A stretch of 64,000 bases of DNA from Wickerhamiella versatilis (lineage: Eukaryota): positions 806,001 to 870,000 of the forward strand of contig JAQOWU010000001.1 in the NCBI GenBank assembly GCA_030867685.1. Reading direction: 5' to 3'. This document shows, in pieces, positions 26,063-54,781 of this stretch (its first letter is position 1; each line of letters starts with the position of its first letter). Below the pieces are notes generated by a model. It ran no database searches. It saw only the letters and a list, made by a program, of their open reading frames with translations, and was not told the DNA's origin. The position numbers were made by a program, and so were the translations under genes.

Positions 26063-27193
26063 TCAATCTCTGAAGCATTTAGGGTCTACAATCATCGGCT
26101 CCTCAATTGAAGAACCTAGTTCGCGGCCTAAGTCACTTAAAATTTGAGTAAGTGTTCGACGATGATGTCCCTCGAAGCCTACAACTGGTTCCGCCTGGAG
26201 CAATGCATCTACAATTGCTCCCTCAGTAGCGTCTGCAGCTGCGCGAAAGAGATCGTCAATGTCATCATCCAGAACGTATTCAGAGCACGTAGTATTCGTA
26301 CTCACTGCGATGCAAATATCACCAGAACCATTTCCCCAAAATGCACCTGTCCTTCCTATCCCCACCCCAGCTCGGTGAGCTAGACGATTAAGTCGACGTG
26401 CATCGAGTGGGGCGTCTGTGGCCAGTACAACAATAATGGAACCTTTCTCTTTAGAGAATTCCGCCTGTGCTTGAAGGTGGTGTGAAAGCCAGCCCCCAAG
26501 GCCTATTCCGCTAAGGGTAAAATCCTTAGGATCTCCAAAATTAGCGAGCACTAATGCACCTACAGAAAAGTTTCCCATGGAGGATTTGGCTTTTCTGGAT
26601 GCGCTCCCAATGCCACCTTTCATACCGAAACAGCTCATTCCCCTCCCAGCACCCACGGATCCTCGGGGAAAATTGCTGGTAACAGTCTCTATTGCCTTGA
26701 TACCGTGATCGGCTGTGATCTTTTGCGATTGAAGATTATTCAAAAAGCTATCGTTGCACTCCAGCACAACAGGGTTGAATGTAGGCAGCTCGCGACCTAG
26801 TCGGGGATCGACTGAGGACGCCCAGCGTACCGATGCATCAAATAGAGAGCCGATGCTGTACGTATTTCCTAACATAATAGGGCCAGAGAGTAGCCCTAGC
26901 TCATGTATTTGTACCAGCCCAGCTGGTTTGCCAAACCCATTAAGGACAGCATATCCACATGCAAGTTCACGCTCTAGTGGTATAGCTCCAAAGTCAATTG
27001 CAGTGCATCCTGTCTGGATCTCACCCCCGTCGAGAGTAACATGACCAACCTGAACACCATCGACATCTGATAGCAAATTGAAGTTTCCAGTGGGTACACG
27101 AGGTTTTATCCATATTCCCTGCTCTCGGTACCGACGAACTAGAAATGCTGCAGTCTCCCTCTCGAAATCATCCCACTCATAGGTCACCACCAT
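26063..27193 (-). CDS. DmpA-like P1/S58 peptidase (L-aminopeptidase/D-Ala esterase-amidase family)
   Basis: N..SDVDGVQVGH.TL, NGFGK..G..Q..ELG, PVVLECND, GSVGAG.GM, KGGIGSAS, ANFG, GSIIVV.ATDAPL and GNGSGD (autocleavage Gly-Ser). Confidence 0.92.
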   Translation of the reverse strand: MVVTYEWDDFERETAAFLVRRYREQGIWIKPRVPTGNFNLLSDVDGVQVGHVTLDGGEIQTGCTAIDFGAIPLERELACGYAVLNGFGKPAGLVQIHELGLLSGPIMLGNTYSIGSLFDASVRWASSVDPRLGRELPTFNPVVLECNDSFLNNLQSQKITADHGIKAIETVTSNFPRGSVGAGRGMSCFGMKGGIGSASRKAKSSMGNFSVGALVLANFGDPKDFTLSGIGLGGWLSHHLQAQAEFSKEKGSIIVVLATDAPLDARRLNRLAHRAGVGIGRTGAFWGNGSGDICIAVSTNTTCSEYVLDDDIDDLFRAAADATEGAIVDALLQAEPVVGFEGHHRRTLTQILSDLGRELGSSIEEPMIVDPKCFRD

Positions 27194-27775: not shown

Positions 27776-29380
27776 ATGAAGGCACCAAATGACCCCTTTA
27801 TTCCTAGTGCGATGCCTAAAAGTTTTGCACTTCCATCTGGAAAAACAGCACTTGTAATTATTGACATGCAACGTGACTTTATTGCTGAAGGAGGTTACGG
27901 AATGTATCAATGTCCCTCCGCGGCTATTTTTGCAAAGGTATCATCTATTGTTATAGCATTAAAAAAGGTTCTGGAGGAAACCAGAAAGACAGATATAACC
28001 GTGATTCATACCCGTGAAGGGCACGACCCCGATTTGAATGATTGTGCTGCCACAAAGAGGGTGCGCCAAAGGTCTGCTAATCCAGAAAGACACAAGTTAT
28101 GTATTGGAGAGAAGGGACCATTGGGGAGGCTATTAGTTCGAGGAGAATTCGGCCATGAAATCGTTGATGAGCTCAAACCCCTACCAGGCGAAATTGTGCT
28201 GGATAAACCAGGCAAGGGATCGTTCTTCAATACTTCGCTATACCATATTCTGACTTCACGTGGAATTACGCATCTTATTTTGTGTGGTGTGACTGCAGAG
28301 TGCTGTGTATCGACAACATTACGGGAGGCTAATGATCGAGGATTCGAGTGCTGTGTTCTTACTGACTGCACAGAGGGCTTTGATACCGAGATTACACAAG
28401 CTTACAAGAAGCTTTATAGCTCTTATGACGGCTTGTTTGGTTATAGCTGTACTAGCTGTGAATATCTTGATTCTTTAAGAAACGTACCCAGCTATATGAG
28501 GCAAAGTGATAAAGAAATACCCTTAAATGGATATTCATTCTTCATCACTGAAAAAATACCTGAAGCATCTCTTGTTGTCGAAAGGTTAAAGTCGAAGGGT
28601 GCCCAAATAATTGGATCAGTCGAAAGTTCCCAACATTATACTGCCCAACATAAAACTTTTCTCCTTGACATAGATACCTACGGTGAAATTTATACCAGAC
28701 TTCAAGTAGGCTGTGTATTCTCACCGACATTTGGAACGGTACCCATTACAGACACTGCACCTTTATGTCCATCATTCGATAAAATTGCTATTGTTTCCTT
28801 CAACTCAAAGGAAGCACGAGCTATATGGGTTGAATTGCTTGATTTGAACCCTATGGATCCTTACTTTCGCAATTTTAGATGTTTCCCAACACCAGCAGTC
28901 AACCCGTACGGGCTTCACATCAAGCCTAAAATTGGAATCCTTGGACAAATGGGCTCCATGCCTGATTTTGAGACCAAGTTACTTTCACTGATACCACAAG
29001 CCAAAACAATATTACTTGATCAACTACTTTTTCAGGAAGGGTCTAATATAGGTAAAATATTGCAACACCAACAGAGTGGGCTACTTTCTCCGAGCATGAG
29101 ACAGAAATATGTACGTGAAATCAAAAACGAACATATCATTTCTGCGAAGCACGCAGCCTTGCTTCAGTTTCAATTGCTTAAGGTAACAAAAAAGATCAAG
29201 TATATTTTTGAATCAAACCAAATACAAGCAATGTTGGTAGCAAAAGAATCAGAAGTCTTTGGTATGATCAACTCTTTGGACTTATGTGCATTTGTATCTT
29301 CTAAGTCAAATTTCGTCATGCTTATTTCCGCTGGTCTCGACTGGAGACTGATAGACTTGGCTGAGTGCTTAGATATGTAA
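27776..29380 (+). CDS. Biuret/triuret-hydrolase-like isochorismatase domain fused to a degenerate amidase-like C-terminal domain
   Basis: IIDMQRDF..GGYG, HTREGH.PDL, GRLLVRGE.G, DKPGKG.F and CCVSTT.REANDRGFEC give the Asp-Lys-Cys triad. The C-terminal half retains LKSKGAQIIG, DIDTYGE and PTFGTVP....PLCPSFD. Confidence 0.8.
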   Translation: MKAPNDPFIPSAMPKSFALPSGKTALVIIDMQRDFIAEGGYGMYQCPSAAIFAKVSSIVIALKKVLEETRKTDITVIHTREGHDPDLNDCAATKRVRQRSANPERHKLCIGEKGPLGRLLVRGEFGHEIVDELKPLPGEIVLDKPGKGSFFNTSLYHILTSRGITHLILCGVTAECCVSTTLREANDRGFECCVLTDCTEGFDTEITQAYKKLYSSYDGLFGYSCTSCEYLDSLRNVPSYMRQSDKEIPLNGYSFFITEKIPEASLVVERLKSKGAQIIGSVESSQHYTAQHKTFLLDIDTYGEIYTRLQVGCVFSPTFGTVPITDTAPLCPSFDKIAIVSFNSKEARAIWVELLDLNPMDPYFRNFRCFPTPAVNPYGLHIKPKIGILGQMGSMPDFETKLLSLIPQAKTILLDQLLFQEGSNIGKILQHQQSGLLSPSMRQKYVREIKNEHIISAKHAALLQFQLLKVTKKIKYIFESNQIQAMLVAKESEVFGMINSLDLCAFVSSKSNFVMLISAGLDWRLIDLAECLDM

Positions 29381-35024: not shown

Positions 35025-36452
35025 CTACTGGATCATTTGGCACAATCGTAGTATGATAGCATCCTGCAAGTCATTAGGAGCTTTGCCGATGTAGTTATTA
35101 AACATCATTGAAAATACAACATCTCGCCCACCAGCGTCAGTTAAATATCCGGAGATTGTTGACACCCCGTTTAGAGAGCCTGTTTTTGCATGAACGTTAT
35201 TTGCTGCTATGGTATTCACCATTCGGTTGCTCAATGTTCCTCCCACGAATCGTCGAGAGTCTCCCGCTACTGGCAAGGCATCATACCAATTATTGAACCA
35301 AGATGCATTCCGTACAGCCAGGAGTAATCTGGTAATGGATTCAGGTGAGATTAGGTTTCCTGTAGACAAGCCACTTCCATCAACAATCCGAACAGTCTCA
35401 ACGTCGACACCTCTTTTCCCTATGTGTTTTGCAATGGTGCTGAGTCCTGCCCTCCAGGTACCGTGACCCACGACTTCGCGGCCGATAGACTTTGCGAGAA
35501 TCTCTGCATGGCCATTGTTGCTGAGTTTTAGGAAAGGAATAAGCAGTGCGGATAAAGGAATGGACTCGTGAGATATCAACTCAGTCGCATTTTCTGGCAT
35601 TTTACTTATCATGGGTGAGGATACAAATTCGATGTTTTCCTGCTTTAGCGCCTTTTCAAATATATTTAATGCGTAATATGTAGGATTCCACACAGCTATC
35701 CATTCTTGCACAGGCATACTGCCATGGGAAATGCTGCCCTGGACTCGAACGGTGTTGCTACCATGATCTCTTTCAATAGTTATTGGGTCATCATCCTCTG
35801 TCTCCTGGTTCACCGTGACTGCCTCATTGACCAGTTTAACGTAGTCTGTTTGAGGGTTTAGTGAAATCATAGGGCTTTCTCCTATATTACCTGGGGAAAC
35901 AGATACAATAACACTCCCAGCATCGTAATCAGTGTCTGGTGATACTGTCAAGGCCGATATTTGGGCGCCATAGTAGTAGGACTCATCGTTCCATTCCCAG
36001 CCATCTCCAAGTCTTTGACTATCAAACCAGGAATCATCCGCAATGACAGATCCCCGTATTCTTTCAATTCCCGTAGCAGAGATTTTTTTGGCTAAATTTA
36101 CGCAGTCAGTGGCAAGTAGTGTTGGGTCACCGCCTCCCTTCAAGTATATGTTGCCGTTCAAGGTTCCATTACGAACCTCTCCATCGCTAGCCACCGTAGT
36201 TTTAAACTTATAATCGGGGCCTAGTACATCTAATGCCACTGTTGAAGTAAGTATCTTTTGGTTTGATGCTGGGAGAAGACGTGTCTGGGACGCATGCTCG
36301 TATAAAATTGAACCTGTCTCTACGTCTGCAATGATCACACCTACCAGTGCACCCTTGAGGCGCTTATCACTTAGCAATTGGTCAATCTCGTACCATATGG
36401 TGCTTGCGGCCGTAACTGTGGTCACAAAGACATTAAGCAGCTGTAGTCGCAT
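35025..36452 (-). CDS. Peptidase S13 D-Ala-D-Ala carboxypeptidase/endopeptidase (PBP4/DacB-DacC type) with signal peptide
   Basis: All three PBP motifs are present: PASNQK (SxxK), LSNN (SxN) and AKTG (KTG). Also GGGDPTL and DGSGLS. ATG at 36452 gives a hydrophobic leader, MRLQLLNVFVTTVTAAS. Confidence 0.93.
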   Translation of the reverse strand: MRLQLLNVFVTTVTAASTIWYEIDQLLSDKRLKGALVGVIIADVETGSILYEHASQTRLLPASNQKILTSTVALDVLGPDYKFKTTVASDGEVRNGTLNGNIYLKGGGDPTLLATDCVNLAKKISATGIERIRGSVIADDSWFDSQRLGDGWEWNDESYYYGAQISALTVSPDTDYDAGSVIVSVSPGNIGESPMISLNPQTDYVKLVNEAVTVNQETEDDDPITIERDHGSNTVRVQGSISHGSMPVQEWIAVWNPTYYALNIFEKALKQENIEFVSSPMISKMPENATELISHESIPLSALLIPFLKLSNNGHAEILAKSIGREVVGHGTWRAGLSTIAKHIGKRGVDVETVRIVDGSGLSTGNLISPESITRLLLAVRNASWFNNWYDALPVAGDSRRFVGGTLSNRMVNTIAANNVHAKTGSLNGVSTISGYLTDAGGRDVVFSMMFNNYIGKAPNDLQDAIILRLCQMIQ

Positions 36453-36618
36453 GGGCAAATTACATAAGCAGTCTGATAAGAGCTCGACGTTTATTCGTGC
36501 AGAATAAACTGATGAGAACCCTGTGGTCACCTAGAAATCGTATGCAGTCATAAAATATTAGCTTGGATATTCTTGTCTAAATAACAACCTTACATAGCAA
36601 CCATGTGCTAGGCGGAAT

Positions 36619-38403
36619 TCAGCACCAGATATTGTAAACCCGCACTGGCCAGGACTTGCTTTGGCGCTGTGCTCGTTCAACAGCAATGCTTTCACGGAGC
36701 TCGGCAATATTTGGGTTTCTTACGCCGGTGAACACGTCAATATTTTCTAAGCGAACGTACGACCAGTCCCGAGTGTAAATCTTATGGCCAACAAATAAGA
36801 CAAGGATGATGCATGTGGACAGCCAAGTTTCGAAGAAATTTTTGGCTTGACTAGCACCATTATGGTCCGCACCAGGATCTGTCCATCCCAGTGGGAAAAG
36901 GGCGATCCAGAATTGGAGACAAATTGTCAGGGCGGCTAATAGCATACCCACGATGGGTATTGTGTACCCACCAGGTGCAGCAAAGTCGAGATCTTTTTTA
37001 GGGTCGAGGCCATTTTTCTTCATAGCCAATCTGTTGCGAAGATGGCATACACTGACTGAGCCCCAAGTCCAAAGCGAACTCATGCCACCCAAGGCCGAAA
37101 GCCAATCAAACACTTGGCCATACCCATCCCAGGCTGAAATGAATGCTAGACCGCCAAAGCATAGTGCAATAATGAGTGCTGTCACGGGACGGCCCTCATT
37201 GTCTATCCACAGAAGCTGCTTAGGAGCGTGGCCTTGAGCAGCCAGAGCGACGAGAGTTCTTGTGCTTCCGAATACAGCTGCATTGGCAACCGAAACAACG
37301 GCAAGCAGAATAACAACGTTCATTATTGAAGGAAGAGCCTTGATTCCGGCAAGATTAATGGCAATCACAAAGGGAGAGGCTGATGCATTTGACGCGGTGC
37401 CGAGTCTATCATTATCGTAGGGAACCAATGTGGCCATCATGATAACACTTACAAGATAAAACAGAAGAATACGCCAAAATACTTGCTTACAGGCCCGAGG
37501 TACGGCTTCACGAGGGTTTTGCGTCTCTGCAGCTGCCAGACCGGCAAATTCTGTGCCACTGAACGAGTAAGCTGCTGTTACAAATACCTTGAACACTCCC
37601 TTTGCACCATGGGCAAATGCACCTGGATTGTGCCAGTATTTACCTCCAATGTAGTCGTGATTTGGACCACCACCGCACGCAATAACAATCCCACAGATAT
37701 TGAACCCGATTACAGCCACGACCTTGATGAAAGAGAAAATAAACTCTGCCTCTCCATATCCGCGAACACCAAATACATTGATAAAAAGGACTGTCGCCAA
37801 AAAGAGGCCAACCCATGCTGCTCGATTGACCTCCGTAGCACCATTGTGATCGCCTTTCCAGTAGCCTAAGGTCACGGCTGCGGCGATCAACTCATTTGGC
37901 ATTGTGATAAGCCATCCAATTGCGTAGACCCAACCAATGGCGAAGCCCCAGGAGTGGTCGAGGAAGCGATAATTATAAGCACTGAACGCACCATTCACAG
38001 GATATCTGACCCCGAGCTCTCCCAGTGCATTCATGGTGCAGTAAATCAAAATCCCAATCACCGCAAAGCCAATTATGAGACCCCCTCCTCCTCCAGCCGC
38101 AAGCGCGCTGCCTGATGAGATGAATAGACCTGCCCCGATACTGCCCCCGATTCCAATCATCTGGAGATGCCGGGTCTTGAGCCGTCGCTTTAAAGGAACC
38201 TTGGTGGATGCAGCAATCGCTCGCTGGGATGGTTCGAGATGAGAGTCGTCGTCCAAGAAGTGTACGGGCTTCCAATCCATGAGCCAGCGGTAAATTGGGC
38301 CACCACTTGAGGGATCCGGTTCGAGCGCAACATCATTGACTTCGCCAACCTCATATTGGACTTCCTGGGATACAATGGGGTGCTTTTCTATGTCTTTGCT
38401 CAT
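36619..38403 (-). CDS. General amino-acid permease (YAT/GAP1 family)
   Basis: LKRRLKTRHLQMIGIGGSIGAGLF, GYGEAEF, YSFSGTE, KQVFWRI, SPFVIA and terminal WC. Confidence 0.93.
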   Translation of the reverse strand: MSKDIEKHPIVSQEVQYEVGEVNDVALEPDPSSGGPIYRWLMDWKPVHFLDDDSHLEPSQRAIAASTKVPLKRRLKTRHLQMIGIGGSIGAGLFISSGSALAAGGGGGLIIGFAVIGILIYCTMNALGELGVRYPVNGAFSAYNYRFLDHSWGFAIGWVYAIGWLITMPNELIAAAVTLGYWKGDHNGATEVNRAAWVGLFLATVLFINVFGVRGYGEAEFIFSFIKVVAVIGFNICGIVIACGGGPNHDYIGGKYWHNPGAFAHGAKGVFKVFVTAAYSFSGTEFAGLAAAETQNPREAVPRACKQVFWRILLFYLVSVIMMATLVPYDNDRLGTASNASASPFVIAINLAGIKALPSIMNVVILLAVVSVANAAVFGSTRTLVALAAQGHAPKQLLWIDNEGRPVTALIIALCFGGLAFISAWDGYGQVFDWLSALGGMSSLWTWGSVSVCHLRNRLAMKKNGLDPKKDLDFAAPGGYTIPIVGMLLAALTICLQFWIALFPLGWTDPGADHNGASQAKNFFETWLSTCIILVLFVGHKIYTRDWSYVRLENIDVFTGVRNPNIAELRESIAVERAQRQSKSWPVRVYNIWC

Positions 38404-38975
38404 CGTTGGAACGTCACAAAGTTACGACACTATGTAATGCCAATTTCTTATCTTTCATGATGCACCCACCCATACCCATGTGATAAGTGCTTGGCAGCAA
38501 ATAGTCCTTTATCTCGCAGCAGTTCCCCCGCCATGAGGGTTTATTTACTATTTACAGGAAATTTATAGTCCCTAGCTTGACGTTCCCACAGGGTCGCCGG
38601 AACTCTATTCTATTCAAAATAAAGTTCGCGAGCAGCAGAGCAATATATGCTTTCTCAGTATCAAGTCGCTATTAGGTAATGAAGGTAGTGGGCAATGGGC
38701 CTCGCCAAGAGACATTTGAAGTCTCCCCTTCCCTCCACCCCACTTCACGGTGGAGGCTGGGCATGAGCACATGAGCATCAAACAAATAGTTAGGCGGAAA
38801 CTTTTTCTAACTGGAATATGTAAATAAAAGTACAAATACGGGGAATTATGGGAATCGTTATTATACGTTTTTCGTCAAAGAATCCGTCGGAAGGTGAAGT
38901 ACCTGAGTTTTCAGGGTGGCTACTGCATTACAATAAATCATGAGGTTTTTGGAGGATCCTCCAGTCAGCTTCTAT

Positions 38976-40502
38976 TTAAGGCAACCACCGGCGCTTGAGT
39001 GAAGACGATGTCGAAATGGTGCTGTTCTGAATAGCCAGAAACGCGTTCTTGAACGCTTCCATGTCTTCGTAAGTACCAACAGAGATACGAAGCCACGTTG
39101 GCCAGCTGTCCCAGACACGCCCAACGGTCACACCTTGTTTTTCGAAGGCATCAGCGACCTTAGTAGCGTTCTGGCCGGTTTGCATCATGAAGAAGTTTGC
39201 CTGAGAGTCTGTGCAGTTTACACCATGCTTTCCAAGCCACTTAATAGTATCGTCACGAACGCTTCCAATGTACTGCTTACGGTTTGGCACGAGATCAGTT
39301 TGGTTGAGACTCGCGAGCGTGGCTGCAATGGTGGTGACTGAGATCTGGTCAGCACCTTTAGCAGAGATCTTGCTCAGGGCGTCAGGGTGTCCAAGAACAA
39401 ATCCAGCGCGGATACCAGCCATACCGTAGATCTTTGAAAATGTGCGAGTGACCAGCAGGTCAGGGTATTTCTTGATTAGGTCGATTACAGTTGGTACGTC
39501 TGAGAAGTGAATGTATGCCTCATCGACCAGCACCATTGCACCGTGAGGCTTGTTCTCCAGGGCTTGAATGATAGCCTCTCGGGGAGTAATAGTGCCTGTA
39601 GGGTTGTTGGGGTTGCAAATATAGATCAGGCCAGCATCAGAGTAGCTGGTCATCTTCTGGATATCATGGGAGCCATTCTTCAACAAAGGCACGAGATGAA
39701 CGGGATTTCCCAGGCTGTAGGTCATCTCCTGAGCCTGCTGGTAGCCAGGATCGGCGACAACCAGCGACTTGTTCGCCGAGGTGAATACCTGGGGAGCAAG
39801 TTGGAGGACCCAGCCGGACCCTGGGTAGGTTTGGATGTAATCAGAGGTGAGATTGAAGGATTCAGCAATTGTTTCTGATAGTTTGTCATCTAGATCGTAC
39901 TGGTAGCGTCCGGAGAATGCGATCATCTCAGTAATGGCATCCTGGGCAGCTTTGCAAGGACCCAGCGGGTTCTCATTATAGTTGATGTAGGTGCCATTCT
40001 TGTCATATTTTACGGCCTGGGCCTTGACCTTGACTGCAGAACTCTTGCCTTTCACAGTACTGTTGCCGCTGAAATAGGTCAGCTGGGGTTTTGTGTAGGT
40101 ATATGGTTCGTAGCCAGGATTGAGTGTTGCGTAGAAGCCACTTGAGCTACCGTTCACGGATAGGTAGCCATCCACAATTGTCAAGGGAGTGCTTCCACCA
40201 ATACTGATGGTAACAGACTCAGAGCTAGGGCCCAGGGTAACATTGTATCTCGTGGTGTCAGTCATGGCGTCGTTCTCATATACCACTTCGCTAAGCGGCT
40301 CACCAGAGAACGCATTGTCATCAAACTTGTCACCAGGCCCGTCGGTCAGGTGCAGGTATCGGTAATTCGACAGCTCGTTGTAGGTTGTTAGTCCCTTACC
40401 ATCGAAGTCAGAGTTGTCACTCTCTGTGATGAGGTACACCGATTCACCGAACACAAGGCCGAGAAGTAGGAGCTTGGAGAGCATTGTAGCCATTCCATCC
40501 AT
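38976..40502 (-). CDS. Chimeric secreted PLP aminotransferase: signal peptide, yeast cell-wall-protein-like domain, and HisC-like (class I/II) aminotransferase
   Basis: Leader MLSKLLLLGLVFG. Residues ~20-165 are acidic and Ser/Thr/Gly-rich with LSVNGSSSGFYA..N...PY.Y. From aa ~173: NENPLGP, YICNPNNPTG, LVDEAY, RTFSKIYGMAGIRAG (PLP Lys), ANF and LRISVG. Confidence 0.85.
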   Translation of the reverse strand: MDGMATMLSKLLLLGLVFGESVYLITESDNSDFDGKGLTTYNELSNYRYLHLTDGPGDKFDDNAFSGEPLSEVVYENDAMTDTTRYNVTLGPSSESVTISIGGSTPLTIVDGYLSVNGSSSGFYATLNPGYEPYTYTKPQLTYFSGNSTVKGKSSAVKVKAQAVKYDKNGTYINYNENPLGPCKAAQDAITEMIAFSGRYQYDLDDKLSETIAESFNLTSDYIQTYPGSGWVLQLAPQVFTSANKSLVVADPGYQQAQEMTYSLGNPVHLVPLLKNGSHDIQKMTSYSDAGLIYICNPNNPTGTITPREAIIQALENKPHGAMVLVDEAYIHFSDVPTVIDLIKKYPDLLVTRTFSKIYGMAGIRAGFVLGHPDALSKISAKGADQISVTTIAATLASLNQTDLVPNRKQYIGSVRDDTIKWLGKHGVNCTDSQANFFMMQTGQNATKVADAFEKQGVTVGRVWDSWPTWLRISVGTYEDMEAFKNAFLAIQNSTISTSSSLKRRWLP

Positions 40503-41635
40503 TGCAATCCCAATTAAATACGTTTTCTAGCCTATGCAAAACTTATCTATCTGCAATGCCGCGGTTAGGAACCTTCCACAAGTTTTCATGGCGTGTCCTC
40601 GTTCTGGGAGGGCTGGTTTTTTTCAAACAGGTTCGTGGCATACCTTTTACCTGATTTTCAGAGAAATCTTCATTTTTTAAATTTTTTGCTGCCCAACAAG
40701 CCGCCATAGCGTTTGTTTAGTGTGGTTGTCCAGGTTACCACCTTCCTGTTTGGGTAATATTCGTATATGCAATTTGCCCATTTGATCAGAGCAACGGCGG
40801 AATTTAGTGGCCAGCAGCACCCCTCGAGCTTGAAACATTAATGCCTGAAGGGATACTGTAGTGTATTTCGGAGTTATTACCGCTGGTACTGCTGCCTCGG
40901 ATAGTTCCTCTTGCCTAAACCGACTCTTATCTTTGTGATTACTACAAACCCTAGGCTAGCATTAGATTTACCGCGAACAATAATATTACATTGGGATCTA
41001 TACGAGAAAAGAGGAAGGTCAATCCGAGATCCCAGCCCGAGGTGGGTTCAGTTGTGATAAGCACCCAACACAAATCGACATTCACACAAGACCGCACTGG
41101 GTTGTAACATCGAACCACATATCACCACCGCAGCCTGTGCCATTATATCCACTCACATGATTGTGATGGTTTTATGCAGTACGCATGACTGTGCCTAGAA
41201 CCTACCTATTACCTCTATAGTTGATGAGCGATGCAGGACATCTCATTAGAAAAGACCCTTAAAGGGGCAGATAACTCTGCTCACCGCCTAGGAAAAACCA
41301 AGCCATTCTCGCACCATCACAACATCACTGTCCCTTCACCTCCTGCGCTTCCTTTAAATGCAACTACCACTGCTGCACCTGTGCCAGTAGCCGCGGAGTC
41401 ATGAGGGATAAGGGTTTTTCTTCGGGCAAGACCTGCTCACGTGATTGGCTGTCTGAGACTGCGATGACGTAGACATTAGTAACTCGGCCTGGCCCGGGTG
41501 TGTCAGCAGAGCCGGGGGTTCTGGTGTTAAATCAAAAATAAGTCAGGACAAAAGCAGCACCCCTGACAATTACTAATACTTTTCTAGGGTTCGTCAAGCT
41601 GGCAGGTGGACAAATCCGAGCGACCTCTAGATGGA

Positions 41636-43282
41636 ATGCCTCGGAGTAGTAGGCAAAAGAAGAAGCCCTGCAATACCTGCAGCTACCGCAAGGTGAAATG
41701 CAATCGAGTGTCACCAGTGTGTGGGTCGTGTGCCCGGCTGGGTCTGTCCTGCTCGTTTAGTAGAAACGACGAGTTAAACAGTGGACCGAGCCTCCAGGAG
41801 GAGCTGGATAAGATTGAAGAACGTTTGGCTTCTATACTACGGGTGCATGATAGAAAGGCTTACATCCGAGACCATTTGTCGCAATCCACCAACGCGGGGA
41901 GGGTGCCTGATATTCTTGCACGCGAGCGCGGCATTGGCATTGGTGGCATAGAATGTGACCATAAAGGAGAGGGACCCGAATCCACTTTGATCCATACCAT
42001 TTTTGATATGAAAGCGGTGGCTGTAATCGGAGATCTTACGAACGACCCTGGTTTTGTTGATCGGGTCTCCGAAAGTCGGAAATATTATTATGAGTGTTAT
42101 GCGAGAAATTTTGAACACGTTAAGCCGCTGGTAGACTCCTCGGAACACCTCACCGAGGCCGAGATCTCTGAGGGCTTGGCACAATATTATGACCCAGAAC
42201 TTGCAATTGGGTCCCAACCCGTCATGTCTCTATACTTCACGCAAGAAGAAGTGAATTCCCCAGAAATCCATCCATTGATAAAGGATATTTATACATCGAG
42301 TGTTATGATCTATATCTTTCGGAGAATGGGAATCACCGGCAAAAAACTGTATCTTGCCCTTGCCCAGATTCTCCGGGCAACTTCAATATGCGGCCTCAGA
42401 CGTCCTTCTTTTAACTTATTTAAAGCAGTGTCGTTCTCTCTGCCTTTATTAGGGAGCTCATGCTCTCCCCCCATCGCTAATTTTGTCTGCACCATGGGAT
42501 GGGTAATGGCCTCTCAGTTAAGGCTCAATCGCGCGATCACGTATCAGTCAATGCCATTCCTACGGAGGATATCAATCCAGATGTGCTGGTACTCGTTTGT
42601 TGCGTATAGTATGCTTATGGAAATCTTAAGATTCAGGCCCCTGGGTAGCCATACCTGGGACTCTGACTTCCCTGTCCCTTACTGGGAACCTGCCGCGCAG
42701 ATTAAAAGCATCAATTATGTATTAGAACTGGGGAAATTTTACAATGAAAACTTCAGGTCTATCCGTATGGTGGCCACAACCTCTGAGGTGACCCCGTCCA
42801 TCAAGTCCTTAATCCATGACCTTGACGAGGGGCTGGAAAAAAGTTTTGAGCCAGTTGCACGCAATATGTCAGAATTGATAACCAATTTAGTCGAATATTA
42901 CAACCACGCTGCATACCTGTGCTATTGTTTACTCAAATTATGGATCTGGTCCAAGCTTGCTTTTTTCGAGCGCGACTTGGATGCCATTGAAATATGTAGA
43001 GTTGCAGCCCAGAATGTGCTGAAGTGCTCTTTAATTATTGCCAGAGGTTCGTACGGTATGACGTGGACCTCGGTGCAGGCCATGAATTCTGCATTCGAGA
43101 CCATGGTGTTATTATCAGTGAATTGTCCACAGGAGGACAACGCATTATTCCTAGCTCTCATGCAGCAAAGTATACAGCAGTTCCTGGAGGAATGGGGTCC
43201 ATCAGATTTAAAGGCGGGAACAACCCGCATATGGCAGACCCTCTTAGACAAATTATCGGCGTCAGTGTACCAGCCAGTCTGA
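41636..43282 (+). CDS. Zn2Cys6 transcription factor
   Basis: CNTCSYRKVKC......CGSC......C followed by a coiled-coil. First ATG is at 41636. Both ends may be altered by introns. Confidence 0.85.
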   Translation: MPRSSRQKKKPCNTCSYRKVKCNRVSPVCGSCARLGLSCSFSRNDELNSGPSLQEELDKIEERLASILRVHDRKAYIRDHLSQSTNAGRVPDILARERGIGIGGIECDHKGEGPESTLIHTIFDMKAVAVIGDLTNDPGFVDRVSESRKYYYECYARNFEHVKPLVDSSEHLTEAEISEGLAQYYDPELAIGSQPVMSLYFTQEEVNSPEIHPLIKDIYTSSVMIYIFRRMGITGKKLYLALAQILRATSICGLRRPSFNLFKAVSFSLPLLGSSCSPPIANFVCTMGWVMASQLRLNRAITYQSMPFLRRISIQMCWYSFVAYSMLMEILRFRPLGSHTWDSDFPVPYWEPAAQIKSINYVLELGKFYNENFRSIRMVATTSEVTPSIKSLIHDLDEGLEKSFEPVARNMSELITNLVEYYNHAAYLCYCLLKLWIWSKLAFFERDLDAIEICRVAAQNVLKCSLIIARGSYGMTWTSVQAMNSAFETMVLLSVNCPQEDNALFLALMQQSIQQFLEEWGPSDLKAGTTRIWQTLLDKLSASVYQPV

Positions 43283-43766
43283 AACGTTTCAGTAATCTTT
43301 CGTACTAACCTAATAATTTTTTTCTTATCCAGGCACCGACCACAAAGCGAGTATCAAGCCAGAATAAGCAATCAAATGTACAGGGTACGGGTAATGATGA
43401 TTCACTACCTGGGCTATCTTGCATTATCCAACCAGTCTCATTGCGTTATCATCATCCGTGGCCGTGGCCTTGAATGTGAACGTCATAATTTTCGTTGGAA
43501 GTTTTCTCATGATAATCGTGATGTCAATAAAAATCAGCTGGCATGCAAGATGCGCTCGAGACTGTAATGATAATTACAACCATACTAGTTTAGTTTATGG
43601 ATGTGCAGCATTGGTAGCAGGTGGTAGCTGCTAAAGGACACTAAACTTCTTCTTTCAGGCTGATATCGGCATCGACACTAAGAAGTTTACTTATTAATTG
43701 GTTGTGGTCGTCCTGGAAGATATTATCTCCATCGTATTCCTAGGGCTTAACTCCGTATTTCCATCT

Positions 43767-45374
43767 TTATATTTCTTCAGCGACCTCCAGTCTCTGTTTT
43801 TCTAGCGAAGTTTTTGATGATCCCGTTGCATAGGTTTTTCGGGCACCGCCGAACCACGAAACAATGCCGAAGATCACAGTGATGCCCACTGCAACGCAGC
43901 AATAATTCATATTTTCACCAGTCACTGGCAGCTCTGTGGGGAAGAAGAAGAAAATAATGCAGAATGTAAGATACAGCACGGCAGGAACGTGGCATACTGT
44001 AGTCCATCGACCGAGGTTGTAATAGCCCTTTGGCTTGCCATTCGGACAGAACATGTACGTGACGATGGGGAATAAATACGAGACATAAATCCCACAACTG
44101 GCCATATCCAGTACTGTGCCAAACGCGGCAGAACTGCCAAAGAGAATTGCGACAAATGCAAACTGGAAGCCAATACAAAGCAGGATGGCTGGAACGGGAA
44201 CTCCTAGCGTCGGAGAGACATACATCAGCCACTTGTTAAGTCCAAACGGAAATGCACCATCGCGTGCAAAGGCGTAAATTGATCTAGAGCCTTCAGTAAT
44301 GAGGGAGTTGGTGGACAAGCTCTCACAGAGAATAACAAACGATGTGAGCACTATTGCACCTGTCTTTCCCACGGCCTGATTGAACACTTCCACTATCGGG
44401 AGACCCGTAGCCGTGTCCGCAACACCTTCCAAATCGGTGAGGCTGAACAGCAATGCAATGATAAATGTGAGCCCGGTGACTATTCCGATAAAAATTGATA
44501 ATACCATGGCCCGCGGTGCATCTCGTGCAGCGTTCATAAGCTCCTCTGACATATGCGCAGGTGCGTCATACAAACACAAGCAGTATGCCACCTGCATGCT
44601 CCCTATGATAATCGTCATCCCCTTGTTCCATCCTGAAGTGTCAATGACTTTCGTGAACACGAGCGACGCAGGTTGGAAATCGGGCGCTGCACACGCCAGC
44701 GTTGTGATCATACAAACCAGAAACACCGTGATTGACCAGTAGAGGGCAAAAGTCGACATATAATGCAGAATCTTGTTGGCAAATATGTTGATTAGACCAA
44801 ACAGAACCAGGAATCCATAAAAAATGAGTGCAACCTTCCAGTTCGAGGGATCAAAACTCTCGTCTTTGCTGTTTAGCGTGGCCAAACCAGCAACAAAATA
44901 GCCCAGTTGCGGGCTTGCGCCCATGCACACCAGCCCTGCGAGTTGAATCCATCCACAGGCGTATGATATAGGCCGGCCCCACCTCGACTCCGGGCCTCCG
45001 GCAAGGAAAAGGCACCATGAATACTGCCCCCCAGACACCGGATATGCAGAGCAAATGTCCGCCAGTGATAAACCAACAAATATGGAGAGTACGCTGGCAA
45101 CTACCCATCCCCAAACTAAAGCTACGGGTCCGCCGTTTAAGAAAACTTGGCCTAATGTCCCCGCCACAGCTGTATAACAGGTCAAAATAGAAAAGCAAAA
45201 TCCCACCATAGAGATCAACGAGAAAGATCTCTTCAGTTCCTGCTTATAGCCGAGATCATTGAGAATAGCACTGTCAGCTGGAGGCACTCCGATGGAGCCG
45301 TACTCCAGGTCACCCGGAGGGGAGGCTACTACCGTATGCGATGATCCCGCCTTTTTTTTCTCTGACTGTTCCAT
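43767..45374 (-). CDS. APC amino-acid/choline transporter (HNM1/UGA4 family)
   Basis: LGYKQELKRSFS, GGPVALVWGW, SAYPVSGGQY, YDAPAHMSEE, SR.IYAFARD and NMNY. Confidence 0.9.
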   Translation of the reverse strand: MEQSEKKKAGSSHTVVASPPGDLEYGSIGVPPADSAILNDLGYKQELKRSFSLISMVGFCFSILTCYTAVAGTLGQVFLNGGPVALVWGWVVASVLSIFVGLSLADICSAYPVSGGQYSWCLFLAGGPESRWGRPISYACGWIQLAGLVCMGASPQLGYFVAGLATLNSKDESFDPSNWKVALIFYGFLVLFGLINIFANKILHYMSTFALYWSITVFLVCMITTLACAAPDFQPASLVFTKVIDTSGWNKGMTIIIGSMQVAYCLCLYDAPAHMSEELMNAARDAPRAMVLSIFIGIVTGLTFIIALLFSLTDLEGVADTATGLPIVEVFNQAVGKTGAIVLTSFVILCESLSTNSLITEGSRSIYAFARDGAFPFGLNKWLMYVSPTLGVPVPAILLCIGFQFAFVAILFGSSAAFGTVLDMASCGIYVSYLFPIVTYMFCPNGKPKGYYNLGRWTTVCHVPAVLYLTFCIIFFFFPTELPVTGENMNYCCVAVGITVIFGIVSWFGGARKTYATGSSKTSLEKQRLEVAEEI

Positions 45375-46873
45375 TCAGTCAGTGTAGGAAAACGTTATGC
45401 TATATAATGGGGCTATGCGATGACACATTTATCAGAGATAATACAGAGGGTTAGGTCTCTCTCGGTAAAAGTTACTAGGGGCGCGTAACCTTATTCTGAG
45501 AAAGAATTAGGCGTCTTTCAATTAGTCTCAGGATTCGGCATGCTGATTTAGTACTTGCCTGATCTATTATGGACTTACCTAGCCTCCAAAACAATATTTA
45601 CCTCTCAATTTGCTTTCTGGAAAGAAGAACATGGGTTCAAATGTGCTTATTAGTATGATTAGTTAAACAAGATATCACAAGTACGCTAGCAATTTCTACC
45701 GAATATCAAAGGTAAAACTCTCTTGTACGTCTTCATTAGAGCAATACTAGCAATATTTCTAATTTACTACTCATCCAGCAAAAGACTTAGAACTGTTGTG
45801 CCATGCTGGAGAATCTACTCTCAAACACTTCTTATTTTGAATAATATGGATGAGCTATGTATGTACTGGAATATCAGAGGATATCTTCCGAGGTAGCTCT
45901 TACCTTTTGAACTTCAATATTAGTGATATCCCTTTATCAGTCGTAGAAACTGTTGACTTCTTCATCAGTTCCAGGTGAATCATGACTGGAAACGATTTAT
46001 ATAAAATATTTTGGGTACGACTTGGTTGAAATTCAGTTTGCAACAGAAAAGCTGGTGTTGTAAAGTCATGTTGCAAGAAGTCCCTCTTATGAAACGTAAA
46101 TTAGCTACACAAGATAAGCTACTTAAGTAGATATTAGCAGTCTTCTGATATCACCTTAATTTTCTAATTTATCTTGTCATGTCCAGCAAATAGAATTTAC
46201 AAGGCGCGAGGTTGGCTGGATGAAGCGATATAAGCGCACTTGGTTTATCATACATTAAAAAACTGCCAGCCAGTTTCCCAATGATGAGAGGGGAACGGAC
46301 CTATATCTCACAACTTATGGAAACTACAAAATTGATTAGTGGTAATTGCATGGCAAACAGTGAGAAGTCCTGCACATCTTGGAAAGATTAATTTTTTTCC
46401 TCACTGGCTTTGCATAACATGATAACCGACCTAGTAAGGAAGCACAAAGGCATAGTATACATGATATGGTACATATCAACCTTAATTTTGAAAAAAAATG
46501 TTTTTGTCGTACTTAATTTCCCGTTGTTTTCCAATAGAGACACTCCCTAACCTCACTTGGAAGTAATGACAAATATAACAGGGGGACAAGCTTATCTACG
46601 GTCTCCGATCGGTACGCTTGGCTAGCAAGAAGTTCGTATCGAAATAGCATCAAGGTAGCGATTGAAGTTCGTAAAATGCAGTTTTTATCAACATTTATCA
46701 TGTATAGAAGTAATTAGGGTTTATTGAAAGGTTCTGAACCCCCTAAATACCCTGCTCGTATCATTTTTGGTGGAACACCGACGGTCTTCGAGGACCCGCA
46801 GATGGCGCTGACTCAAATTCGGTATTTGAACTAGCTGCTTGGATAGCAACGTGCAATTCAACAGAAGCAACTT

Positions 46874-47929
46874 ATGACCAGTGAAGTATTGCTGCCTCTA
46901 TCCGACAATGGTCTGCCAGCAGCTGCTGGAGCTGCTATTTCCCAGCCAACTCCGAAGAGGAAATGGAAATACCAGCCGACAAAGGTGAAATTTGATCCAA
47001 GAAAGCATTTAGATATCGGATCACCATCCTGGAAAAAGACAATGAAAGATTTCGGGTATGAAAAGCATGATGGCATCAGTGATTTTGCCGCTGCCGAGCC
47101 TTTTCGCATGTTTAGCGACGAGGCTATCCGACTAATCCGAAACGATATACTGTCTGAACCTGTCCAAGAAAATCATGTTATTTGCTGTGAAAGAAATCCC
47201 TACATGCTTCGTGGCTACGCCCATAAGCATACACCTTTCATATACGAGGCCTGTACCCACCCAAGCGTGCTCAAGGCTATTTCCGACGTGGTTGGAATTG
47301 ACCTCGTCCATGTTCATGATTATGAAGTGGGGCACACGAACATACAGCTTGGACATAAAGGAAGAGAGGGAGTTCGGGAGCTATCCGATACGCCGACTCT
47401 TCCCCTACCTCCTTCAGAGAGATTGGAGCCGAGTCAATATGATAATCGAATGGTTGATGATTGGCACTTTGACCAGGTGCCGTTCGTTGCCGTTTTAATG
47501 CTCTCCGACACAACTGGTATGGAGGGTGGTGAGACGGCTGTCATGGCAAGGGATGGTACGAGGGATGTGGTCCCAGGACCATCATTTGGAAAAGTTGCGG
47601 TTTTGCAGGGTTCCAAGGTCAAGCATGCAGCATTACGTGCTTTGAACTGCCCGGAGCGCATTACGTTGGTACTAAGTCTACGCCCGCGGGATGTATTTGC
47701 AGAGGATTCTACGAACCTATCAAACGGGAGGGACCATGATGATTGGGATAGTGTGGGAAAATCGTGGCTCGACTACCGGTTTCAGATTCTCGAGGAGCGA
47801 TGTAGACTTGAGCGAGAAAGACTGCGCTCTGCAGACAAATTTGATAAGGACGAGGTCATTAAGTTCTGCAAGTCACAGATAAATTATTTCGAGTTCACGG
47901 CCCGTGAGCTTTTCCCCGATTTTGAATAA
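46874..47929 (+). CDS. Conserved fungal protein with a probable Fe(II)/2-oxoglutarate dioxygenase fold
   Basis: FDPRKHL, AEPF..FS.EAI, WHFD (HxD), GGET and LQG..VKHAAL...ERITLVLS.RP (distal His, Arg). Confidence 0.65.
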   Translation: MTSEVLLPLSDNGLPAAAGAAISQPTPKRKWKYQPTKVKFDPRKHLDIGSPSWKKTMKDFGYEKHDGISDFAAAEPFRMFSDEAIRLIRNDILSEPVQENHVICCERNPYMLRGYAHKHTPFIYEACTHPSVLKAISDVVGIDLVHVHDYEVGHTNIQLGHKGREGVRELSDTPTLPLPPSERLEPSQYDNRMVDDWHFDQVPFVAVLMLSDTTGMEGGETAVMARDGTRDVVPGPSFGKVAVLQGSKVKHAALRALNCPERITLVLSLRPRDVFAEDSTNLSNGRDHDDWDSVGKSWLDYRFQILEERCRLERERLRSADKFDKDEVIKFCKSQINYFEFTARELFPDFE

Positions 47930-53860: not shown

Positions 53861-54781
53861 ATGATTCAGCTCCTTTTGTCTTTGGGTGTCACTGCGGCAC
53901 TACCTGTCGGTGGTGGTGATCTCGTCAGCCGCAGTTTTCCAAATGTCTGCCAAGACGTTAATGATTCCCCAAAGCCAACGTATGTCGCTGTTCAGCCTTC
54001 GCCGATTACTGGACCGATCCAACCCGGATCCCTTCAAGGTGTGAGCAATTTCCGTGATTATACCAGCGGGGTAAAGAATGGTGCTCCATTCAATGATATC
54101 TCTACCTCTAGCGGCAAGCAGCTGAAGCATGGTATAATATATCGGTCGAATCAGCTAAGCAATGCTACAGATGCTGATATCTCAACTTTGGGTGGCGCAA
54201 ATATTACCAGGGATTTCGATTTTAGATTGTTTATTGAGCGAGCAACAGGCCCCGATAGGGTATTTGAATCTACTGAATATGTGGTTGATGATGTCCTGGG
54301 TCCATGCAATGGTTTAGGTGTTGACGGTTCTATTCTCAGTCAACTTGGTAGTGATGTTGTTGAGACGCTCGAATCTTTTGCTAATGGAACTTTCAGCTTG
54401 AGAGATAACATTGTCTACAGCACAATGTATAAGGCAATGGCTGTATACGAAGGTGCTAATGTCGCTTACCACAGACTTTTCCATGATATTGCTTATGAAA
54501 GTACGCCGATAGTATACCACTGCACTGCCGGCAAAGATCGAACTGGAGTAGCGACTGCATATCTCCACAGAATCCTGGGGGTCGATCTGGACACTATAAA
54601 TGATGCTTACTTGGCTAGTAACTATTACCTTGGAGAATCTGATGCCGTCAAACAAGAATATTTGCAGGCCACTTGGGATGTAATTGATCAGGTGTGGGGA
54701 AATTTTGATAACTTTGTTAAGAAGGGATTGAAGCTCGACGAGAACGATATCAAGGCTCTTCAGGACAAATTGCTAGAGTAA
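53861..54781 (+). CDS. Secreted IphP/Y_phosphatase3-type cysteine phosphatase
   Basis: Leader MIQLLLSLGVTAA, NFRD, IYRS..L, DFR...ER and the P-loop YHCTAGKDRTG. Confidence 0.9.
   Translation: MIQLLLSLGVTAALPVGGGDLVSRSFPNVCQDVNDSPKPTYVAVQPSPITGPIQPGSLQGVSNFRDYTSGVKNGAPFNDISTSSGKQLKHGIIYRSNQLSNATDADISTLGGANITRDFDFRLFIERATGPDRVFESTEYVVDDVLGPCNGLGVDGSILSQLGSDVVETLESFANGTFSLRDNIVYSTMYKAMAVYEGANVAYHRLFHDIAYESTPIVYHCTAGKDRTGVATAYLHRILGVDLDTINDAYLASNYYLGESDAVKQEYLQATWDVIDQVWGNFDNFVKKGLKLDENDIKALQDKLLE

Follow-up and report, generated by a model that had tools for sequence, protein, structure and literature searches.

Predicted export of a horizontally acquired bacterial-type aminotransferase by fusion to a DUF7907 wall-protein module in a budding yeast

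The window analysed here is a stretch of 64,000 nucleotides (nt) from the yeast Wickerhamiella versatilis (GenBank assembly GCA_030867685.1, contig JAQOWU010000001.1, positions 806,001 to 870,000). One of its genes encodes a chimeric protein of 508 amino acids (aa) in which a signal-peptide-like leader and a DUF7907-type module are followed directly by a bacterial-type pyridoxal 5'-phosphate (PLP) aminotransferase (Table 1). This is a genuine gene of a budding yeast, and it is under constraint. The comparisons below support its interpretation as a horizontally acquired bacterial enzyme that was retargeted by fusion to a native module. We predict the product to be a soluble aminotransferase that is targeted to the endoplasmic reticulum (ER), N-glycosylated and destined for the periplasmic space, the wall or the medium. 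The probability of this reading is roughly 0.7.

An initial annotation of this DNA had proposed that a periplasmic transaminase of a bacterial type exported by the twin-arginine translocation (Tat) system was acquired horizontally, swapped its export leader for a native secretion or wall module and adapted to the ER route. The searches described below support these proposals; for the adaptation to the ER route, the support comes from eight N-glycosylation sequons that appear to be newly gained. It had also described about 145 residues of acidic, Ser/Thr/Gly-rich sequence behind the leader. The composition was confirmed (residues 23–165: S 12.6%, T 11.2%, G 9.8%, net charge −7). The description has to be qualified in that the stretch is predicted to be a foldable domain of 12 strands and not a region of low complexity.

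The enzyme half

The enzyme half is bacterial in type and not a native HIS5, as judged from profile scores and the tree. It matched the Pfam family PF00155 (Aminotran_1_2) at residues 176–484 (E 3.3e-42, 145.4 bits against a cutoff of 19.7) and covered positions 9–357 of the 361 positions of the profile. The PLP domain is complete, as annotated initially, with DEAY at 327–330 and the SK lysine at 356–357. With the NCBIfam profile NF006580 (PRK09105), the score was 430.5 bits (residues 155–493, profile positions 33–372 of 375). The 32 first positions of this profile, which were not matched, correspond to the Tat-leader region. The score with the hisC profile (TIGR01141) was 206.8 bits and thus below its cutoff of 276.55.

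A collection of 5.8 billion proteins was searched for homologues of the enzyme, and the best 120 matches were listed. One of them matched over the full length and was a 98% twin. The other 119 were bacterial-type proteins of 350–440 aa, which aligned to the enzyme two-thirds alone and were of the PRK09105 type, not HisC. The closest were a Carnimonas protein (P0003, 53% identity), P0004 (56%) and a Halotalea protein (P0005, 51%). All three carry twin-arginine leaders of the form RRxFLRSS, and a Tat-like RR motif was found within the first 60 residues of 97 of the 119 bacterial homologues. The Tat leader is missing from the yeast protein, and a hydrophobic leader and the DUF7907 module stand in its place.

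A maximum-likelihood tree was built from 121 rows by a quick search with midpoint rooting and contained no fungal HIS5 sequence. The yeast pair was sister to Carnimonas, P0004 and Halotalea, with a support of 94 in the Shimodaira–Hasegawa-like approximate likelihood ratio test (SH-aLRT), and was placed inside the starred bacterial clade. The stem branch of the yeast pair was long (0.94 changes per site). In the Carnimonas family, the aminotransferase was sporadic: it was found in 5 of 151 sampled genomes (E ≤ 1e-60), the best match had an identity of 54%, and no closer donor was found in these genomes at this threshold.

The enzyme half looks functional. Seventy-nine alignment columns were near-invariant (at least 95% conserved in the 119 bacterial homologues), and the yeast enzyme retained 74 of them. 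Among the retained residues were K357, D327, Y330, N299/N300, R365 and R472. The CTG codons of the gene aligned with Leu or other hydrophobic residues in the bacterial homologues. Hence, the standard code applies, and the host probably does not belong to the CUG-Ser yeasts, of which Candida albicans is one.

The bacterial proteins P0003, P0004 and P0005 have a common C-terminal extension (..RLC(R/T)AAALA). The yeast protein lacks this extension, and the consensus of the wider aminotransferase family did not show it.

The N-terminal half

An exhaustive phmmer search of the N-terminal half against 1.84 billion representatives gave 18 matches, which were the twin and 17 yeast-type DUF7907 proteins (E 1.6e-15 to 8e-4). 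The identity of the module to its nearest relatives was 32–38%. These relatives are mostly 150–300 aa long and consist of a signal peptide, a domain of ~130 aa, a Ser/Thr-rich spacer and a hydrophobic tail. The Pfam family DUF7907 (PF25484) was matched by nine of ten scanned relatives and scored above the cutoff in seven.

A profile search gave 43 proteins, 29 of them with a precomputed PF25484 match. Matches with a named source all came from Saccharomycotina (Ogataea, Pichia, Brettanomyces, Ambrosiozyma, Priceomyces, Scheffersomyces, Metschnikowia, Pachysolen, Lipomyces and Myxozyma), and one match carries the source label 'cell wall protein'. In the protein atlas, the clusters nearest to the module were DUF7907 clusters from Ascomycota. 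The alignment of the module with the family extends over the whole length, beginning with the signal peptide and closing with the VKVK strand, and the conserved blocks V.L..ES.N...GKGL and YL..NGS..GFYA..N..(D/E)PY.Y. are common to both. Twelve of the 55 DUF7907 relatives comprise the domain only, without an anchor, and 39 of the 43 longer ones end in a glycosylphosphatidylinositol (GPI)-like hydrophobic 15-mer. These matches support the assignment of the N-terminal half as a divergent member of the yeast DUF7907 proteins, a family of small, secreted and mostly GPI-tailed wall-type proteins. In the domain tree, the branch of the module was long (1.23), and the group that contains it, which includes probable paralogues from the same genome, such as P0140, was weakly supported (support 80).

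The module was modelled with AlphaFold2 from an alignment of 48 sequences. The model had a predicted local distance difference test (pLDDT) score of 72.9, a predicted template modelling (pTM) score of 0.70 and 12 strands. Most of the top 50 rows of the VIA-align comparison were beta-trefoil proteins. The secreted fungal effector MoErs1 reached Z 9.4, and ricin-B lectins and Kunitz/fungal protease inhibitors reached Z 7.6–8.7; all these values exceed the background of 7–8 stated for VIA-align by little. A Foldseek search with the model gave no match at E ≤ 0.001. Because the Z values are near background and Foldseek gave no match, the fold is treated as likely and not as established: the modelled module is likely to be beta-trefoil-like.

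A weak tblastn match at 14184–14513 was considered as a second DUF7907 copy in the window and was rejected, as it falls inside the gene of a membrane-bound O-acyltransferase (MBOAT). The tails of nine relatives were also compared with 38404–39030 (translations, tblastn), and no relic of the 3' part of a wall-protein gene was found there (best E 0.13).

The protein P0126 (438 aa) comprises a signal peptide, a DUF7907 module ending in VRVKV and, directly after it, a full-length short-chain dehydrogenase. The dehydrogenase scored 328.7 bits with the bacterial-model NCBIfam equivalog PRK09291 (cutoff 265). The HEGAG motif of the family (see below) is degenerate in P0126 too, where it reads YEGPS, and P0126 groups with the window's probable paralogues in the domain tree. 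Its layout suggests that the DUF7907 module may have been reused as a carrier.

Junction and independent sequence data

The last strand of the module (..SSAVKVKAQAV) joins KYDKNGTYINYNENPLGPC without a linker; the start of the enzyme is also given as KYDKNGTYINYNENPLG. The junction stretch KYDKNGTYINYNENPLGPC aligns with ..RYARKGTYINYNENPLGPC of the mature bacterial proteins. Replaced at the junction were the Tat leader and about a dozen further residues.

Full-length homologues are not common. In the protein collections searched, there was one 90% cluster with three members, and the only full-length homologues are 98% twins. The exact chimeric protein was recorded on five contigs, the longest of which has 400,565 bp. 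The stretch of the locus was present, whole or in part, in 20 run rows from 12 studies, 14 of them with at least half of the sampled words. These rows were mostly food-fermentation metagenomes, and none was listed as an RNA data set.

Contigs of four runs from four studies (X12, X13, X15 and X16) were aligned across the gene. The X13 contig was identical over 39131–40262 and spanned the junction. Overlapping contigs covered 39773–40429 in X12. X15 and X16 each gave one gap-free contig with ~96% identity (38799–40476 and 38722–40466). A check of the junction with independent reads had been advised initially, and contigs of all four runs bridge it without gaps. The X15 and X16 contigs end near the ends of the open reading frame (ORF), where the DNA contigs continue; both runs are merely guessed to be RNA. 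These contig ends give no more than a weak hint at a transcript.

The X16 contig is bounded directly by sequencing-adapter sequence at both ends (38722 and 40466). The 5'-side ends of the X15 and X16 contigs, which come from different studies, lie within 10 nt of each other.

Both halves are under purifying selection, judging from the differences to the X15/X16 variant. Forty of the 98 differences were listed, and 29 of these lay in the coding sequence (CDS), where 25 were synonymous. For the module (codons 25–159), 7 of 9 listed differences were synonymous (P 0.001–0.003 against a neutral share of 0.24–0.28). For the enzyme half, the number was 18 of 20 (P < 1e-8). No stops or frameshifts occurred in any variant of the gene.

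The different evolutionary origin of the two halves would also be expected from an assembly chimera or from bacterial contamination joined to yeast sequence, and this is all that speaks for such an artefact. It is refuted as far as the data go: fungal genes (Zn2Cys6 regulators and permeases) are located on both sides within a contig of 400 kb, the junction is bridged in four runs of four studies (in one of them by sequence identical over 39131–40262), two further protein variants have the same fusion, and the CTG codons and the composition fit the host context. We give an artefact practically no chance.

Leader, sequons and predicted destination

The leader of the chimeric protein reads MDGMATMLSKLLLLGLVFG. 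Its core, LLLLGLVFG, has a Kyte–Doolittle mean of 2.8, and it aligns with the signal peptides of DUF7907 relatives, in agreement with the signal-peptide-like leader of the initial annotation. Compared with the window protein, the twins P0002 and P0139 have 13–14 differences, five of which fall within the first six residues. Over residues 7–24 they are identical to it, with a shared reading from MLSKLLLL. As the twins diverge in the first six residues and agree from M7 on, M7 is probably the conserved start. The next in-frame Met after the leader (M80) is Leu in the twins.

The chimeric protein has 11 N-x-S/T sequons (87, 117, 147, 169, 217, 244, 276, 400, 429, 445 and 493), and 8 of the 11 are located at or after residue 169. 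This number, the tripeptides and their distribution are those given initially. In 5000 shuffles of the whole protein, 4.7 ± 1.9 sequons were expected, and 0.34% of the shuffles reached 11. The enzyme part alone has 8 sequons compared with 2.8 ± 1.5 in shuffles, of which 0.4% reached 8. None of the other ORFs among the window's 29 with at least 200 aa was as dense in sequons as the chimeric gene (2.17 per 100 aa, z 3.4). The next-highest ORF had a z of 2.6, and most others were near expectation.

The bacterial homologues had a mean of 1.28 and a maximum of 4 sequons (n=119). At each sequon site of the enzyme half, a sequon was present in 0–5 of the 119 bacterial sequences and in none of the three closest. 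Several sites were one substitution away (KGT to NGT, SKS to NKS, NGA to NGS and RCT to NCT). This comparison supports a gain of the eight enzyme-half sequons after the transfer. From the gain of sequons together with the conserved leader we infer the ER route; these two observations are the main argument for it.

The C-terminus of the chimeric protein (...STISTSSSLKRRWLP) is without a hydrophobic GPI tail according to a simple composition test. Since the protein lacks this tail, unlike its wall-protein relatives, we propose that it would be released in soluble form to the periplasmic space, the wall or the medium. The same architecture and ER entry would also fit a destination in the vacuole, ER or Golgi, where the enzyme would act on stored or imported amino compounds. 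The lack of a GPI-like tail, which 39 of the 43 longer DUF7907 relatives have, agrees with such an internal location. Alliinase, a precedent for a glycosylated PLP enzyme in eukaryotes, is vacuolar, and the supply of PLP may be easier in the vacuole than outside the cell. However, the C-terminus (...SLKRRWLP) shows no evident signal for vacuolar sorting or of the HDEL type, the module comes from a family of surface-type proteins, and the domain-only relatives (12 of 55) also do without an anchor. We consider an internal destination unlikely and prefer release to the periplasmic space, wall or medium.

Gene neighbourhood and base composition

The features of the gene and of its immediate neighbourhood are listed in Table 1. 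The amino-acid permease and the DD-peptidase are located downstream on the same strand, as annotated initially; the ORF map and Pfam agree on this. A second APC permease lies beyond the Zn2Cys6 regulator. The chimeric gene may be functionally tied to the permease or to the regulator, and the intergenic region that it shares with the regulator gene would serve as promoter.

Table 1. Coordinates of the chimeric gene, its parts and its neighbours in the window
Feature	Position	Strand	Basis
Chimeric CDS, 508 aa and stop	38976..40502	-	ORF list and translation, no internal stops
Leader, signal-peptide-like, aa 1–19	40446..40502	-	Hydrophobic core; aligns with signal peptides of DUF7907 relatives
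Conserved start M7, probable	40482–40484	-	Twin comparison
Divergent DUF7907-type module, aa ~20–162	40017..40445	-	phmmer matches, end-to-end alignment, AlphaFold2 model
Bacterial-type PLP aminotransferase, aa 163–508, including short Ser/Thr-rich C-terminal tail	38979..40016	-	PF00155, PRK09105, tree
Codon of K357, Schiff-base lysine, FSK motif	39432..39434	-	Column at least 95% conserved in 119 bacterial homologues
Intergenic region (1.1 kb), presumed promoter, shared divergently with the Zn2Cys6 gene	40503..41635	.	ORF map
Fungal Zn(2)Cys(6) transcription factor, divergent	41636..43282	+	PF00172, E 5.5e-8
Amino-acid permease, directly downstream	36619..38403	-	PF00324, E 4e-123
S13/PBP4-type DD-peptidase, signal-like leader	35025..36452 (or to 36530)	-	PF02113, E 5.5e-130; TIGR00666, 371.8 bits

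The closest named relatives of the DD-peptidase belong to Actinomycetota (Jiangella, Micromonospora and Amycolatopsis; ~50% identity), and one relative of 481 aa is 63% identical. By these matches, the DD-peptidase looks like a separate bacterial acquisition of Actinomycetota type.

The leader of the DD-peptidase reads MRLQLLNVFVTTVTAAST, and the SxxK, SxN and KTG motifs are visible in its translation. It has three sequons, compared with a mean of 0.43 in 118 relatives of its bacterial-type family.

In Carnimonas, the neighbours of the aminotransferase are M23 and S41 peptidases, LysE and flavin adenine dinucleotide (FAD) monooxygenases. In the other bacterial loci, which are mostly from Acidobacteriota, proteins with a von Willebrand factor A (VWA) domain (44 of 80 loci), a GFO/IDH/MocA oxidoreductase (24) and a TonB-type barrel were recurrent.

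The GC content at third codon positions (GC3) of the chimeric gene was 0.58, the highest among the 29 ORFs, and equal in both halves. Five consecutive genes at ~36600–47900 form a block of raised GC3 (0.48, 0.58, 0.53, 0.53 and 0.47), while most other ORFs have about 0.36–0.45. The members are the permease, the chimeric gene, the Zn2Cys6 factor, the APC permease (43767–45374) and the ORF at 46874–47929. The DD-peptidase beside the block is not raised (0.42).

Four further ORFs of the window were recorded. The first residues of the ORF at 7353–8321 (+), MVSAAFAYAGTEVSALAAAETANPVRAIPS, resemble the internal motif ..AAYSFSGTEFAGLAAAETQNPREAVPRA.. of the permease at 36619–38403, and this ORF may be a truncated or split permease gene. 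The product of the ORF at 53861–54781 (+), 306 aa in length, belongs to the Y_phosphatase3 family. It has 4 sequons, its N-terminus (MIQLLLSLGVTAALPVGGG) is signal-like, and it may be another secreted enzyme. A gene for a peptidase S58 (DmpA-type) is located at 26063–27193 (-). The ORF at 27776–29380 (+) encodes 534 aa with an isochorismatase domain in the first ~210 residues; the other ~320 aa are without a Pfam family.

Evidence against the proposed reading and alternatives

Several results weigh against the reading as an exported fusion of a native module with a Tat-type enzyme. Residues 1–168 had no Pfam match even at E ≤ 10 (the gathering cutoff of PF25484 is 27 bits). The HEGAG motif (H42 E43 G44 A45 G46), which is at least 90% conserved in 48 aligned sequences, is YNELS in the window protein. 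As the motif is lost, its function is probably gone. The enzyme half narrowly missed the PRK09105 cutoff (430.5 of 444 bits) and scored far below the cutoff of the PtaA equivalog NF051461 (392.5 of 500 bits), of which it covered positions 24–358 of 359. The three sister bacterial proteins reached 443, 468.5 and 458.9 bits with PRK09105 and, likewise below the PtaA cutoff, 400–412 bits with NF051461. Five near-invariant positions are altered in the yeast enzyme (E255Q, L352T, R372H, L375A and A395T).

The export itself is predicted from sequence and relatives, with the leader taken as a putative eukaryotic-type signal peptide. The bacterial ancestor type is exported folded with PLP bound, as opposed to the unfolded translocation into the ER. 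Moreover, the X15 and X16 contigs extend to 40476 and 40466 and miss the M7 ATG by a few bases. A search of 80 bacterial loci (the aminotransferase ±10 kb) for the DD-peptidase, the two permeases, the Zn2Cys6 factor and three further neighbours gave no match at E ≤ 1e-5, and the bacterial gene neighbourhoods (Carnimonas and the 80 loci) gave no clue to the substrate. The different donor lineage of the DD-peptidase and the absence of bacterial linkage point to two separate acquisitions and not to a transferred operon. Finally, GC3 in the N-terminal half is 0.59, like that of the enzyme half and unlike the ~0.40–0.45 of the window's typical genes. This raised value is not accounted for by a recent derivation from an ordinary gene of the locality.

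Some of these points would suit a leaderless cytosolic protein made from a downstream start or a decaying relic without an enzymatic role. This applies to the contigs of X15 and X16 (guessed RNA), which end 6–16 nt downstream of the M7 ATG, to the lost HEGAG motif and to the five altered enzyme positions. A leader that is not used or a gene in decay is, however, hardly compatible with the conservation across ~4% DNA divergence, where residues 7–24 are identical and 7 of 9 listed changes in codons 25–159 are synonymous. The twins have Leu at M80, the next in-frame Met, eight gained sequons are of no use in the cytosol, the variants have no stops or frameshifts, and the catalytic residues are retained. 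A cytosolic protein or relic is thus very improbable, and a constrained gene with a leader in use remains our preferred reading.

The raised GC3 bears on the time and place of the fusion. The fusion, or the whole raised-GC3 block at ~36.6–47.9 kb, could have come preassembled from another yeast by introgression or fungus-to-fungus transfer. The GC3 of the chimeric gene, highest of the 29 ORFs at 0.58 and the same in both halves, the raised values of its neighbours and the distance of the module from its nearest relatives (32–38% identity, branch 1.23) are in line with this. Against it, all full-length homologues in the protein collections searched fell into a single 90% cluster, the grouping of the module with probable paralogues of the same genome, such as P0140, has weak support (80), and the codon bias of an expressed gene could explain the GC3. 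An arrival from another yeast is therefore quite unlikely, and we retain the fusion of the bacterial enzyme to a native module.

Proposed origin and mechanism

A yeast ancestor would have taken up the gene of a bacterial PLP aminotransferase of the PRK09105/PtaA-like type, an enzyme exported to the periplasm by Tat. The donor would have been near the Carnimonas/Halotalea group of the Halomonadaceae. The Tat leader, useless in a eukaryote, would have been replaced by the signal peptide and the complete module (~140 aa) of a DUF7907 wall-type protein. The protein would then be made on the ER route and not in the cytosol and would be N-glycosylated at up to 11 sites, eight of which would have evolved after the transfer. 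PLP would have to be loaded outside the cytosol.

At its presumed location outside the cell, the beta-trefoil-like module may retain the enzyme on wall glycans. The enzyme would be active as a normal homodimeric aminotransferase of fold type I, with an extracellular amino acid or amino-acid-like compound as the substrate and an excreted 2-oxo acid as the acceptor. The product would be imported by the adjacent permease or permeases. A role in harvesting amino groups from extracellular compounds for the adjacent permease is speculative and is read from the gene order.

A broader interpretation would regard the DUF7907 trefoil module as a reusable export-and-docking cassette with which yeasts of this lineage domesticate cytoplasmic or periplasmic enzymes of bacteria for the yeast cell surface, with the aminotransferase and the P0126 dehydrogenase as two independent cases. 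The locus, together with the DD-peptidase, the two permeases and the Zn2Cys6 regulator, would then be a surface nitrogen-harvesting system. Such a system might take amino groups (and D-Ala) off bacterial wall peptides or other amino compounds that are not importable. Excreted 2-oxo acids would accept the amino groups, and the products would be imported. We regard this interpretation as doubtful. If it were true, it would mean true extracellular PLP transamination by a eukaryote.

Significance

Yeasts are known to carry bacterial genes, and retargeting by the gain of a signal peptide is also known. Unusual here would be the move of a Tat-exported cofactor enzyme to the eukaryotic secretory route. 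The ancestor crossed its membrane folded with PLP, whereas the yeast version would cross the ER membrane unfolded and acquire PLP afterwards. The availability of PLP in the secretory pathway or at the surface thereby becomes testable. The case would show how a Tat passenger adapts to the ER route, and the putative adaptation is visible in the sequence: the whole leader was replaced by a native wall-protein module, and eight new sequons were added.

The fusion would also be a first functional handle on DUF7907, a widespread domain of yeast surface proteins. No literature on DUF7907 was found in the papers searched. Titles and abstracts gave no description of such a secreted aminotransferase fusion; supplementary yeast gene lists may mention the gene. 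As the yeast occurs in food fermentations, where transamination feeds flavour formation, an exported aminotransferase could have practical relevance.

Comparison with known systems

Among the closest known counterparts is PtaA of Pseudomonas fluorescens. Passages of PMC6206403 describe it as a periplasmic transaminase that leaves the cytoplasm through Tat in PLP-bound form and whose substrate is a glutamate residue with free alpha-amino and alpha-carboxyl groups. According to the same passages, PtaA-like enzymes are also present in bacteria that make no pyoverdine. PtaA and the yeast enzyme belong to the same branch of HisC-like fold-type-I PLP aminotransferases, and PtaA works outside the cytoplasm. 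The yeast protein differs in that it has neither a Tat leader nor a pyoverdine context and in its presumed ER route and N-glycosylation. Moreover, PtaA is exported folded with PLP, and the ER route does not allow a folded passage.

The closest bacterial relatives (Carnimonas, Halotalea and P0004) match the yeast protein at the mature N-terminus (..KGTYINYNENPLGPC..) and have 74 of the 79 conserved positions in common with it. The RRxFLRSS leaders and the ..RLCRAAALA tail are theirs and are not found in the yeast protein. Bacterial proteins of the PRK09105 type have 0–4 sequons, compared with 8 in the yeast enzyme half.

With the yeast DUF7907 proteins, the window protein shares the signal peptide, the domain length, the conserved blocks and the VKVK end. 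In the window protein, an enzyme of 345 aa takes the place of their Ser/Thr-rich linker and GPI-like tail. The Pga31-like family of Candida albicans (Pga29/Rhd3, Pga30 and Pga31) comprises GPI-anchored yeast wall proteins, as described in passages of PMC8466366, which give no domain assignment. In the initial annotation, the motif LS.NGS..FYA..N..PY.Y of the window protein had been likened to Pga30, Pga31 and Rhd3, which would be candidate relatives of the module. No Pga or Rhd3 name was present among the named DUF7907 relatives listed. An atlas query with the Scheffersomyces DUF7907 member gave PIR/CWP1-type clusters and one match of 0.76 to a DUF7907/7908 cluster, and no link to Pga or Rhd3.

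Plant alliinase is a glycosylated vacuolar PLP enzyme, as stated in passages of PMC12030139. As it is glycosylated and located beyond the ER, this description indicates that maturation on the secretory route is possible for a PLP enzyme. Alliinase differs from the yeast protein in being a C-S lyase of plants, without a recent bacterial ancestry and without a wall-protein module. P0126 is laid out like the window protein, with the enzyme directly behind the DUF7907 module, and differs from it in the class of the enzyme.

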